A stretch of 64,000 nucleotides of DNA from Octopus vulgaris (taxonomy: Eukaryota): positions 32,984,001-33,048,000 of the forward strand of contig OX597829.1 in assembly GCA_951406725.2 (NCBI GenBank), written 5' to 3'. Within the stretch, counting starts at the first letter, position 1; each line of letters starts with the position of its first letter. Under the pieces are notes generated by a model. It was not told the DNA's origin and searched no databases. It saw only the letters and a list, made by a program, of their open reading frames with translations. Shown here in pieces: positions 11,610-36,486 of the stretch. The position numbers and the translations under genes are program-made.

Positions 11610-11611
<2 letters not shown>

Positions 11612-11662
11612 GACGGGCTTCTTTCAGTTTCCGTCTACGAAATCCACTCACAAGGCTTTGGT
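11610..11662 (-). mobile_element. Fragment of tRNA-derived SINE (family of 53476)
   Basis: The reverse complement accaaagccttgtgagtggattt...aagaagcccgtca matches 53576-53619. Confidence 0.65.
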
Positions 11663-12775
11663 AGAAATATTTAATGTACAATTCTCTCTGTATATAAAAA
11701 AATATAATTGGAAACAGTATTTGGATGACTGCTTTATATTCTGGACCAAAAACCAAGAAGACTTAGGAATCTTTCACTCACTTTTAAATAAATTACATAC
11801 CTCAATAAAATTCATCATGGAACAACACACAAAGGAATTACCATTTTTAGACATACTTCTAATTAAAGCAAATAACACCATAAAAACAGATCTCATCTAC
11901 AAACCTACAGACTCACACCAAAATTTGAACTTTCATTCCTCCCATCCCTCGCATACCAAAAGATACATACCCTTTAATATGGCAAAACAAATCTGCACTA
12001 TAGTAATAGATGTAGAATTAAGGGATAAAAGATTACAGGAATTTTAAATATTTCTAAAAAAACAAAAATATCCCACTAGTTTAATTGACACAGCAACCAC
12101 CAAAGCAAAAAAAACATCCCAACTACAGACCTCAGAGGAAAACAAACATACAGAAATAAAAATGAACTCATAAACATTCCTTTTGTCATCACCCACAACC
12201 CAAGAAATCACAACATCATCAATACTGCAAAAAGATACCTCCCAATTCTTCAACAATCATCAAGGTTAAACAAATTAATAACAGATTCAAAATTAATTTA
12301 TAGCAGACATCAAGCACCCAACCTAAAAAAAGCTCTTAACCCAAGCAAGATTTACAGCTACAGAAACAACAAAGAAAATTCTCAAATGTGGTGACCCTCA
12401 CTGTGAAACATGCGATTACATTGAAGAAGGAGAACAAACTACTTTCAAAGACAACACCTTTAAAATAGATGGAAATATGAATTGCAAATCCAGGAACCTA
12501 ATCTACTGTGACATATGTCCCGAATAAAAAGAATACTACATCAGTGAAATGGGCATTACACTATATGAGAGAGTAAGGGTACATCAACAACAAATCCAAG
12601 ACCCTTCCGTTAGAAACACAACTTGCAGTAAACACTCCGAAAAATGTAGGAAAAAATTCAAAATATTCCCTTTCTTCAAACTATGGACAGAAAATTAACA
12701 TTTTTATAAGACCAAGGAAGAAAGCTTTATTCAAAAATATCAACCAAAACTGAGCAAAACATAATACCAACAAGT
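11663..12775 (+). pseudogene. Penelope-like element RT C-terminus + GIY-YIG endonuclease remnant
   Basis: WKQYLDDCFIFW, LPFLDI, YKPTDSH, HPSHTK; CxxxxCxxC linker; NLIYC...YYISE (degenerate GIY-YIG) near 12495-12555. Confidence 0.85.
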
Positions 12776-13186: not shown

Positions 13187-14790
13187 CTTCTCGGCCATGC
13201 TTTTGTTTATTTTGGTGTCGGAGAATTGATTACATTAATATTGAGTGGAGGTGGTGAGTTCGAATGATTTATTGGAAGTGTTTGCGGTGTTGAGGAATTT
13301 TTCTTCTTCACAAAATGCAAACCCAAACATACGCAGGAGCGGCAAGCAAGGAATTAACTACAAACGAAATACAGAAAATGATATTTTAAAGAATTACTTC
13401 GACAGCTTAAAAAGAGAAGGTGACTGTGTAAGGATTACACCACCTGAAGAAGAAGCTAAAGAAGCTGAAAAACGTATAATAACATACCGAACATGGAAGG
13501 TAGATTCAAAGAAAATAGAATTGGCAGAAATTGCAGAGATTGAATGTTGTCTGCAGAAACTTGAAGGAGAACCTACCTTCTATAACAGAGGTAGAAAATA
13601 TGCAACAGTGGTCGTCCATTTTAAAAGCAAAGAAGATGCGAAGAAGAACGCGATGCAAATATTAAAAACAGAAAAATGGATTTTATTGCTTAGTTATCGT
13701 GGGAAAAGAGCAGTTAGAATACGAATTAGTAAAATTTCACCAGAACTAAAAATGGAAAGAATATTAGCAGCAGTTGTTTTTAACTGCAAAGAAAATGTAG
13801 AAATTTTAAATGTTAAAAAATCCAAAGATGTACAGTGGTGGGGTTATGCAGTGCAGGTTTTGATTCATATAACCATACCTGATCTGTATAAAATCCCAGA
13901 GGAGTTAGTTTTCCGACGAGACTCGACTGAGAGTCATGGTGGAGGGGAGACCACCAGTGTGCTACAAGTGTAAACTCAGAGGACACATGAAAGATGCATG
14001 TCCGACTAGAACATTGAACAATAAGACAGATATAGTGCAAACGGAAAAGGTAGAATGTGTAAACACAGAAATTGTAGAAAGTGAAGAAGAGTTGGAGAAA
14101 GAAAAGGAAAAAACAGATGGAAAAGAAGATAGAAAAAGAGCGAGGGTGGAATCACCACCTAAAGCTCAAGAAAAGAAAAAAAAGAAAAATAAGACTATAG
14201 AGGAAAAGGATGATAGTATGAACGAAGATAAGAGAATAAAAGAGATAGAGAAAGAACCGGAACATTTATCGATAGACCAAAAATGGAAAAGAAAAGTGTC
14301 AGAGAAGTTAAAAGCATGTAAAGAAAGAAGAAGACCAGTAGGAAATAATCTCAAGGTAGTAATTTTATACATGAAAGATAAAGAAATAGAAAAAAGACTG
14401 GCAGGTAAGAAAGGTTTAATAAGAGTTAGGCTAAACCCAGAAATATTTGATGATCAAGTAAAGTCGGCGATAATAGAAAAAGAGACATTTTTAAAATTGA
14501 AAAGTGTTTTTTCAACTGTTTGTATAATGCAATATATTCGATACGACAGTTTGCCTGCAATAATAGAGCAAGAAGATATATTAGATTACATTACAGATGA
14601 ACGCCCAGTATAACAGAACGGTATTTTAAATGATTTTACGAGTTTTGGGGAGCTCGTAAACATTCCATATAATTCATTATACATATTTCATTTCATGGAC
14701 ACTGCTCATTTTATTTTATTCTATGTACCCCACGTCCTGTTTTTGTGTCGCCCCCTCTATTTTTCGGGCTACCGTGCCTATAATAAAGAT
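13186..14790 (+). mobile_element. ORF1-only (HAL1-like) non-autonomous Tx1/L1 derivative
   Basis: ORF 13245-14613 (one frameshift near 13910) is collinear with the Tx1 ORF1 and has a CYKCKLRGHMKDAC knuckle. A ~170 bp 3' UTR ends in aataaagat. No ORF2; flanked by TA/TG repeats. Confidence 0.75.
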
Positions 14791-14896
14791 AGTATATATG
14801 TGTATATGTGTGTATGTATATGTGTATATATATGCACATGCATGTCTATATGTATATGTATGTGTGTGTGTGTGTATATATATATGTATATATATA

Positions 14897-15419
14897 TATA
14901 CATAGAAGTAGATATATGGCACAACGAAGTACCGATATTTACTGGAAATAGCGAACGTAATAATACGACGCTAATGTATAGCTTCACCGCGTATGTACTA
15001 GCAAAAATGCGTGAGTGCAACAAACTCGAAAAAATTGTCTTACCTCCAGGGAGAACATCTGAAAGATGAAATACCCAGAAAAGGATAATGTGGGACCGGA
15101 GCCGGTTTCAGATTTTTCAAGATATGCCTGCACACATATACTTGATCTATCTTCATCAGCCAAACATATACCACAACAACATTTCAGGCATATCTTGAAA
15201 AATCTGAAACCGGCTCCGGTCCCACATTATCCTTTTCTAGGTATTTCATCTTTCAGATGTTCTCCCTGGAGGTAAGACAATTTTTTTCGAGTTTGTTGCA
15301 CTCACGCATTTTTGCTAGTACATACGCGGTGAAGCTATACATTAGCGTCGTATTATTACGTTCGCTATTTCCAGTAAATATCGGTACTTCGTTGTGCCAT
15401 ATATGTACTTCTATGTATA
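14897..15419. repeat. Long foldback: ~234-bp arms (14897-15130 / 15185-15419), 54-bp spacer
   Basis: Arms are near-perfect reverse complements (about 3 differences). Confidence 0.95.
15091..15162 (-). ncRNA. Type I hammerhead ribozyme spanning the foldback spacer and left arm
   Basis: Minus strand: tgg-CTGATGA-agat..tcaagtatatg..catatcttga..atct-GAAA-ccggctccgg-TC-cca. Confidence 0.8.
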
Positions 15420-15474
15420 ATTTTCCCTCACGGGCTATTCTTTACTGGAAAGCAATACTCTCATATTGCAATAC

Positions 15475-15519
<45 letters not shown>

Positions 15520-16300: not shown

Positions 16301-16692
16301 TCTTTATATATAAAAGTGAGGTTGTGTGCTGTCTGTCTCCTACGATTTAGATTCCTTACTCCCACATTTTGCGGTGCAGTTTAACCAAAACCGGGTATCT
16401 TATAGTCGTGATTCATATCGAGCCCTTCTGGGTATTAGCGCGCGTCTACGATGAGTCTACGATTTAAAAAAAAATTTACTATCAATTTTTCCCATCTTTA
16501 ATACATTTTTGTCATATATAAGGGAAGTAACTCTCTAAAAATTTATTATTAAATCTCAGAACGTAAAAAGCTACAGCAACACCCCCCTTTGTGGTTAGCC
16601 ATATTGAGATGGCTATTATACTTTACATCTCTAAAAATGCTTATATAGTTATTTCCCTTACAAACCCGAGCAACGCCGGGCGATACTGCTAG
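16301..16692 (+). mobile_element. Non-autonomous Helitron
   Basis: A|TC 5' end (tctttatatataaaag), subterminal hairpin cccg-agcaacgc-cggg, CTAG|T 3' end. Confidence 0.8.
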
Positions 16693-17084
16693 TATATATA
16701 TAAATTTAAATGTAAAGTATGAACGAGAGCAACTAGCGTCCACTTGATGTAGGAATGACATCGTCAGTTTTTAAGTTACAATTTTATAACAGGTGAAAAT
16801 AAAAAGACAGAAAAAAAACAGAAAAAAAGGAAAGAAAAAGAGAGAAAGAAGAACATTTAATCAAACAGCTTTGTATAAATTTGATGATATTCTCCTATTG
16901 TCTTATTCATTCCTCCAGGGTGTGATGTTAATAACCTGCAAACATATTTCTCCTCATACATTGAGAAGTGCAAGCGAAACAGATTCAGAATATTTTTTGA
17001 GAATATGCACTTTCAAGTCTTCAAAATTGCAGCCGCTTGAAACCAAATGTTCAGCAAGTTCTGTCAAACTACTGTTATTGTGCC

Positions 17085-36082: not shown

Positions 36083-36101
36083 AACGTAGCATATAAGAAT
36101 A

Positions 36102-36486
36102 CTAGCAGTATCGCCCGGCGTTGCTCAGGTTTGTAAGGGAAATAACTATAAAGCATTTTTAGAGAGTTATAGCCAAAAAATAGCAAAAAAAATGGAAAAA
36201 AATTATGGTAAATTTTTTTTGAGAGTATAAAAAGGTGGAGTTGCGTCCCCTAGACAGTTTGCGGTTTGTGTTTCTGATTCTCGACCCCATGTCGAATTTA
36301 TCGATTTTTTTCAGAACTGGGGGAACTTTTCAAAATTTTCGCTGCGTTAGTTTTGAATTATGACATTGGGCTATGTGTGTGTCAAGTTTCATCAGAATCG
36401 GTTGAAAGCCGTGGTCATGGTGAGGGTACAAGCAAACAGACATACAGAAACACGCACAGACAAACTGCCGTTTATATATAGAGAGA
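36102..36486 (-). mobile_element. Non-autonomous Helitron (3' end shared with the 16301 copy)
   Basis: Minus strand A|TC...gcaacgccgggcgatactgCTAG|T. Confidence 0.8.

Follow-up and report, generated by a model that had tools for sequence, protein, structure and literature searches.

The foldback element described here lies in the window, which is the whole 64,000-nucleotide stretch of Octopus vulgaris DNA that was analysed. It was likely copied into a (TA)n microsatellite from a hammerhead-bearing 432-nt repeat by the RT/GIY-YIG protein of a Penelope-like element (PLE), through paired target-primed reverse transcription. Judged by its DNA, the repeat is a non-LTR retrozyme, having a tandem unit within the 150-450 bp range, a type I hammerhead, no ORF, no LTR structure, a GC content below 50% and strong self-pairing. 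Its insertions carry the features of EN+ PLE insertions, namely an inverted 5'-truncated copy, a tail at one end only (70 of 71 cases) and a microsatellite target. The locus on its own is ordinary for its family.

Anatomy of the foldback and its predicted hammerhead

The insertion is composed of two partial monomers placed head-to-head, and its features are as follows, with monomer positions (M) counted on the reference monomer, L012:1364-1795.

14897..15479, 583 bp, no strand: whole insertion, two partial 432-nt retrozyme monomers, head-to-head
14897..15187, minus-strand sense: A-arm, M81-372, with its 3' end at site A and a full hammerhead
15185..15479, plus-strand sense: T-arm, M138-432, with its 3' end at site T and the hammerhead 3' half only
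15185..15187: head-to-head junction of both 5' ends, 3-nt microhomology CAG/CTG
15420..15479, plus strand: tail between sites A and T, 60 nt
15131..15184, minus strand: 54-nt "spacer", the part of the A-arm without a duplicate (stem I 5' strand, CUGAUGA, stem II 5' strand)
14790..14896: left target flank, (TA)n/(TG)n microsatellite
15480..15517: right target flank, (TA)n
15091..15162, minus strand: predicted type I hammerhead, from core, descriptor and covariation
15162-15160 with 15093-15091, minus strand: stem I, UGG/CCA
15159-15153, minus strand: CUGAUGA
15152-15149 / 15113-15110, minus strand: stem II, AGAU/AUCU, plus a bulged distal helix
15109-15106, minus strand: GAAA
15106-15103 / 15098-15095, minus strand: stem III
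15094/15093, minus strand: predicted cut, after the GUC triplet

The inverted arms (14897-15130 and 15185-15419, 234 and 235 nt) are 2 substitutions and 1 indel apart, in agreement with the roughly three differences reported by the initial annotation. That annotation had the element end at 15419; the real end is at 15479, 60 nt further, where (TA)n begins. The 3' end of the A-arm adjoins the left (TA)n and that of the T-arm the right one, and no target site duplication could be read inside the flanking (TA)n microsatellite at 15480..15517. Two small hairpins lie in the 60-nt tail, which also supplies the 3' strand of a predicted 11-bp stem around site A. With an arm divergence of 1.3%, the window copy is among the younger copies of the family.

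The minus-strand type I hammerhead was located as first proposed, with its core (CUGANGA, GAAA and NUH in type I order), stems, GUC triplet and cut site at 15094/15093, as was the start of the inverted arm inside stem II, which leaves the plus-strand arm with the 3' half only. Stem III, which had been drawn as 5 bp with a 2-nt loop, folds instead as 4 bp with a GCUC tetraloop. The hammerhead descriptor matched once on both strands of the 64-kb window, at this site; its strict form gave 0 matches in 25 of 25 shuffled windows and its loose form 0.48 per shuffle. Rfam returned no hammerhead family at E<=1 for the whole window or at E<=10 for 15050-15200, so that the hammerhead call rests on the descriptor and on covariation; the 46-nt stem II region may be behind the lack of an Rfam match. 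Among 30 chosen variants, 96.4% of hammerhead cells were paired and three pairs were changed on both sides, one in proximal stem II, one in distal stem II and one in stem III, while stem I was invariant. The changes separate subfamilies and, the sequences being related, amount to three events on one tree rather than to independent observations. The core-conservation figure (1.1% vs 3.9%) is inflated, as some loci were picked by patterns containing the core. Stem III is a perfect palindrome in three differing sequences, as would be expected if double-hammerhead folding is maintained; in the window copy it is a one-mismatch variant with weaker self-pairing (-16.2 vs -26.5 kcal/mol) and an unchanged monomer fold.

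In folding predictions the second arm raises the cost of the hammerhead fold to 57.8 kcal/mol, with every pair probability at zero, as against 7-8 kcal/mol without it. Even without the second arm or in a circle, the hammerhead fold stood 7-9 kcal/mol above the MFE, with a predicted stem I pairing probability under 0.01 in a model that omits tertiary contacts. By these models the long hairpin should silence the predicted ribozyme of the window copy. In Xenopus, 8 of 9 tested retrozyme dimers were described as showing no cleavage (10.64898/2026.07.22.740005).

The repeat family and its paired ends

A 22-mer near site A had 433 exact matches in the octopus genome, a looser hammerhead pattern had 339, and the 3' half of the window's hammerhead variant had 52; the reversed control gave 0 for each. 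Reading the monomer order from other copies yielded a closed tandem monomer of 432-433 nt, made up of the tail, an 83-nt segment that is absent from the window copy, the spacer and the arm. The monomer is 38% GC, its longest stop-free stretches are 124 aa and 63 aa, and tblastn of four PLE proteins against it gave no match. Its circular fold was predicted at -121 kcal/mol, compared with -89.6 +/- 5.3 for 60 shuffles (shuffle minimum -103.5). Loci with two same-strand hammerheads one unit apart exist; the arrays are short, up to about two units, and the copies are dispersed. There is also a sister subfamily of about 85% identity, equal in length and with matching ends; intermediates between the two are present. 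Contigs from four other organisms (X16, X17, X18, X20) cover the monomer across most or all bins, indicating that the family is common to relatives; none of the contigs from the eight runs examined spans the window element.

Parsing of 136 elements gave 86 head-to-head, 0 tail-to-tail, 45 single-arm and 5 more complex arrangements. Sense 3' ends were found at two sites 60 nt apart, A (M372) and T (M432). When both ends of a two-arm element were canonical (n=71) they were almost always one of each kind, with 70 A+T, 1 A+A and 0 T+T; the A+T count becomes 69 after merging a twin, L168, which is counted twice in the 136-element set. In the sole A+A case a SINE, with a 14-bp duplication, interrupts the arm. 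The same pairing was seen in 47 of 47 elements of a structure-blind subset, the first 100 of the 433 matches (one twin counted twice). Loci read by eye contributed 6 new A+T insertions among 30 of the sister subfamily and 9 among a further 20, with no A+A or T+T in either set. Three duplicates of L057 (C31), whose ends are non-canonical, are included in the 136-element counts and were left out of the arm, junction and allele analyses.

(TA)n adjoins 101/117 A ends and 85/87 T ends (186/204), as opposed to 15/46 free 5' ends. At M368, four bases inside site A, the A of the target stands in place of the G of the RNA in 39 of 108 terminal A ends, and the same replacement occurs in only 2 of 135 internal copies. 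Target DNA that paired with the RNA and acted as primer would leave just such a trace. Single-arm elements end mostly at A, with 17 at A vs 2 at T in the structure-blind subset and 21 vs 1 (by eye) in the sister subfamily, which suggests that A is primed first, with both selections somewhat favouring A; two of the 45 single-arm elements turn out to carry a short T arm.

The inversion point, which the initial annotation had proposed to compare across copies, proved variable, with 67 distinct junction pairs among 70 A+T insertions. Microhomology of at least 2 nt was present at 51/83 junctions (28% expected, P 4e-10) and a short gap or insertion at 17/83; overlaps reached 11-14 nt in five loci (L047, L154, L156, L158, L159), and RNA stems were often used. 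The special role once given to the stem II junction was not borne out, since only 2 of 166 junction ends, one of them from the window copy, lie in the stem II loop region (2 vs 3.9 expected in the unbiased subset). The whole hammerhead, M109-174, is slightly depleted in junction ends (6 vs 13.0 expected), and no 5'-end pile-up was found at the hammerhead cut (3/166 ends; 2 vs 2.35 expected).

The cDNA arms vary from 22 to 894 nt; 52/225 exceed one unit and 120/225 cross the cut site. The T-arm extends beyond site A in 55/70 insertions, and either arm may be the longer; in L153 the two barely overlap (A-arm M262-372, T-arm M372-432). Arms within one insertion differ by 2.5% on average and those of different insertions by 4.6%. 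At diagnostic sites, 11/207 comparisons between the two arms were discordant (91 expected) and 7/80 between tandem units (36 expected). The figure of 11/207 leaves out five near-end or CpG-like sites, with which it becomes 47/373 vs 158, and L008 was left out of the allele test. The low divergence and the allele agreement indicate that both arms usually come from one variant. In L057 (C31; duplicates L058, L059, L091) the arm haplotypes differ at 5/17 diagnostic sites, reflecting either two templates or later recombination; one RNA molecule is thus not always the template. A mild excess of 5' ends was seen at M20-50 (19 vs 8 expected in all arms; 9 vs 4.5, P 0.04, in the unbiased subset), which could be where transcription begins, or where copying stalls close to a complete turn. 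L075 and L079 start at M49, the A of TCAGTC, a word that we take to be initiator-like.

Penelope-like elements, the proposed route and its rivals

A search of the 2.8-Gb genome with the window's PLE fragment and with Pfam GIY-YIG queries, in which 150 of 209,794 and 150 of 6,136 candidates were scored, yielded two young autonomous families together with several decayed ones. The fragment used as query, at 11610-12770 on the plus strand of the window, is a decayed, 5'-truncated PLE RT/GIY-YIG fragment lying just after a (TA)n run. The two families have frames for an RT with a C-terminal GIY-YIG, the whole frame measuring 784 aa (L100-L103, L261-L272) and 781 aa (L235-L240, L273), with an ORF1 of 430-480 aa ahead and many copies with open frames. 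From a CxxxxCxxC motif ahead of the endonuclease, both appear to be Neptune-like, following the description of that clade in PMC8557442. Both have a U3-A8 minimal hammerhead, a variant described in PMC4209133, two ends 34 nt apart and a (TA)n target. Of 13 head-to-head loci from these autonomous PLEs, 12 had both ends, and 12/12 were A+T. Their tail runs on to the ORF1 start, and the distance from the cut site to the first end site is about 75 nt, compared with about 200 nt in the retrozyme. CCAAT, TGACGT and TATA-like motifs were seen by eye in the pLTR of the 781-aa family.

No ORF-bearing partner similar to the monomer was found among the PLE families sampled, and the two that were characterised have 34-nt tails and not 60. 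The best blastn match of the monomer was at E 0.16 among 30 GIY-YIG loci, and there was none among 17 RT loci; in the part of the PLE families that was sampled, no ORF for RT plus GIY-YIG was linked or homologous to the repeat. To the eye, the 60-nt tail recalls in its first half the shorter, 34-nt one of the 781-aa family (a hairpin, then CTAWTCTT), but this loose resemblance was not significant. The initial annotation had taken the foldback for a retrotransposed pLTR with an inverted partial pLTR. Its retrotransposed nature and its inverted, Penelope-type anatomy are upheld, but the repeat is not the pLTR of an ORF-bearing element: it is a closed, ORF-less 432-nt tandem monomer with no detectable similarity to the PLE loci examined. 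Beside PLE loci, other and unrelated type I hammerhead repeat families were observed (L208, L212, L213, L216, L223, L226), two of which (L213 and L216) resemble inverted or tandem repeats of their own type.

In the route that we favour, a source copy would be transcribed and the hammerhead would likely trim the RNA to a unit-length circle, or else an uncut multimer would be used. A PLE protein, likely a dimer, would bind the structured A-T region and nick both (TA)n strands. The 3' end of each target strand would then anneal to a UA-rich site in the RNA and prime cDNA, one at M372 and the other at M432. The two cDNAs would extend over variable lengths, often past a full unit, and their ends would be joined head-to-head via microhomology, the foldback being a by-product of the insertion route. 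Copying must be able to cross the cut site seamlessly, which leaves as options a circle, an uncut multimer or a precise jump between templates. The first of these has some appeal, as arrays that are shortened in each round need to be regenerated somehow. Less easily accommodated are the T-arms that run beyond site A (55/70 insertions), which need either strand displacement or a second unit or RNA. A bolder version, which we consider possible but rather doubtful, is that a circular-RNA parasite without any likeness to its helper recruits the PLE dimer by RNA shape alone, that the two subunits, starting from opposite (TA)n nicks, prime at fixed sites of their own, 60 nt apart and so wider than in any tail described, and that both roll round one 432-nt circle before head-to-head joining. 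If this shape-recruitment reading were true, the genome itself would prove directly that retrozymes are moved in trans by PLEs, and a single mechanism would account for three PLE features: inverted pLTR, one-sided tail and partial tandems.

It is unlikely that each copy is merely the 5'-truncated stub of some autonomous PLE possessing this pLTR, with no separate retrozyme and the hammerhead as a passenger. Such a reading gains from the insertion anatomy, which equals that of PLEs, and from the fact that the PLE diversity of the genome was sampled in part (the 150/209,794 and 150/6,136 candidates scored). However, past site T, 83 nt lead seamlessly to the hammerhead of the next unit, as seen in the 52/225 arms longer than one unit, whereas the tail of the autonomous families leads to the start of ORF1. 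Moreover, 0 of 68 free 5' flanks run into a common family-specific sequence, the three abutting flank pairs coming down to two short T arms, a SINE in common and a local duplication. The hammerhead itself has a C3-G8 core, a 4-bp helix III and covariation, in place of the U3-A8 minimal form of the local PLEs. Self-priming, in which a single cDNA or an antisense RNA bends back on itself to be copied, was proposed for head-to-head junctions in PMC3846280, as for the palindromes of Adineta Penelope elements, and the microhomologous junctions, often on RNA stems and with overlaps of 11-14 nt in five loci, as well as the alleles shared by the arms, are in keeping with it. We nevertheless regard it as distinctly improbable, as the folding back of one cDNA cannot give the second arm the 60-nt tail if the first starts at A; in the window copy it is the tailless arm that reaches further 5', in some insertions the arms overlap slightly or not at all (L153), either arm may be longer, and both outer ends adjoin (TA)n at fixed sites.

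The initial annotation also suggested that the locus is arranged so that a read-through transcript forms either a long dsRNA or the ribozyme, with the half-copy as a substrate for trans-cleavage. The junction does lie within the stem II loop, read-through would give about 235 bp of dsRNA, and a full hammerhead with a partial antisense copy occurs in 6/83 two-arm insertions. Nonetheless, such a purpose is very improbable: the hammerhead region is slightly depleted in junctions, the stem II junction is not conserved elsewhere (67 distinct of 70), and on the minus strand the antisense arm is transcribed ahead of the hammerhead, whose fold then costs 57.8 kcal/mol. The proposed either/or switch is not supported by the comparison of that cost with the 7-8 kcal/mol obtained without the second arm, and the half-copy appears to be a chance truncation and not a designed substrate, being itself paired within the foldback hairpin of -434 kcal/mol. 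In these models, read-through from either side would give a long hairpin, a plausible substrate for editing or small RNAs like any such foldback. A DNA MITE bearing long TIRs, with TA duplicated at its target site, is scarcely credible, for all that the near-perfect 234-bp inverted repeat in a TA context recalls one. Only one end has the 60-nt tail, so that the arms are unequal; the middle differs from copy to copy; there are direct tandem units, and single-arm copies are common. As the initial annotation had held, MITE identity is ruled out, by the variable junctions and the asymmetric ends. Paired target-primed reverse transcription by a PLE protein stays our preferred explanation, and such a route explains a steady source of near-perfect hairpins in the octopus genome, foldbacks of a kind that is prone to mis-annotation as MITEs.

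Relation to known elements and neighbouring sequences

Neither the type of element nor the anatomy of its insertions is new. Animal non-LTR retrozymes have been described as ORF-less tandem monomers of 150-450 bp with a canonical type I hammerhead and a GC content below 50%, and PLEs, which co-exist with them, were proposed as their mobiliser (PMC7229834; 10.64898/2026.07.22.740005). The octopus family is like them in monomer size, hammerhead, GC content, self-pairing and co-existing PLEs. It differs in that animal retrozymes form long arrays, while the octopus copies, known here from DNA, are dispersed and have arms of at most about two units (894 nt). Unlike the known retrozymes, they are mostly head-to-head foldbacks with two fixed ends, a 60-nt tail and (TA)n. 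The word "inverted" is absent from the main text of PMC7229834, and in the available text of 10.64898/2026.07.22.740005 it occurs only in a reference title and "tail" does not occur. For retrozyme movement in animals, that preprint argues from co-occurrence and pLTR homology, and also for satellite-like local amplification. There, as far as its available text goes, retrozymes are tied to pLTRs by homology, whereas here the tie is an insertion signature and homology was not found. A retrozyme that carries the PLE insertion signature at dispersed sites likely shows which enzyme and which route spread such elements in animals.

Insertions of EN+ PLEs were reported to have an adjacent inverted 5'-truncated copy and a 30-40-bp tail at one end, and putative non-autonomous Chlamys elements with pLTRs have also been described (PMC3846280, PMC8557442). 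The octopus retrozyme resembles EN+ PLEs, as characterised in those accounts, in its inverted copy, one-end tail, partial tandems, microsatellite target and hammerhead upstream of the ends, but it has no ORF, a tail of 60 nt rather than 30-40, and a C3-G8 hammerhead with a 4-bp helix III rather than a minimal one. In PMC11167929 the purified Poseidon PAc protein was shown to cut both strands and extend them from two sites within the RNA, by which the tail is defined; the target is AT-rich, uncut RNA is usable as a template, the two RT start sites are adjacent and a dimer is predicted. In the available text of that paper the strands are reported not to differ in start site and the use of one of each per insertion is not addressed, whereas the octopus genomic data show one of each. 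The rule that an insertion pairs one A end with one T end, seen in the retrozyme as well as in the autonomous PLEs, is stricter than any we found in print, and together with a 432-nt natural template it offers a sharp test in the existing in vitro PLE assay (PMC11167929). No description of the family, of its 60-nt tail or of a quantified one-of-each rule in a retrozyme was found in the openly available literature that was covered. The available text of an octopus repeat annotation of 2026 (PMC13282606) mentions neither hammerheads nor retrozymes. Repbase or Dfam might list the family as an unclassified repeat.

Two target nicks, two cDNAs, a microhomology join and an inversion are also features of L1 twin priming, in which the second priming site is variable and the halves are without overlap. 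The octopus retrozyme differs from it in having two fixed sites and, in most insertions (55/70), arms that duplicate sequence.

Several other features of the window were observed. A broken ORF1-like frame at 13245-14790 on the plus strand, with a weak CCHC knuckle match (E 0.005) and AATAAA at about 14782, stops at the microsatellite immediately left of the foldback and is a possible source of plus-strand read-through into it. Within the element, positions 15244-15276 on the plus strand (M197-229) are identical between both subfamilies and resemble a splice acceptor ending in TTTCAG, a 15-nt exon ending in GAG, and a splice donor, GTAAGA. The same segment is also a hairpin, so that its identity across subfamilies may be structural. 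A tandem repeat with a 340-bp period and 95-100% identity occupies positions 89-1256, where the hammerhead descriptor had no match. Two inverted 59-nt copies, at 16644-16702 and 36092-36150, each end in a GC-rich hairpin and CTAG before (TA)n and resemble a Helitron 3' end.
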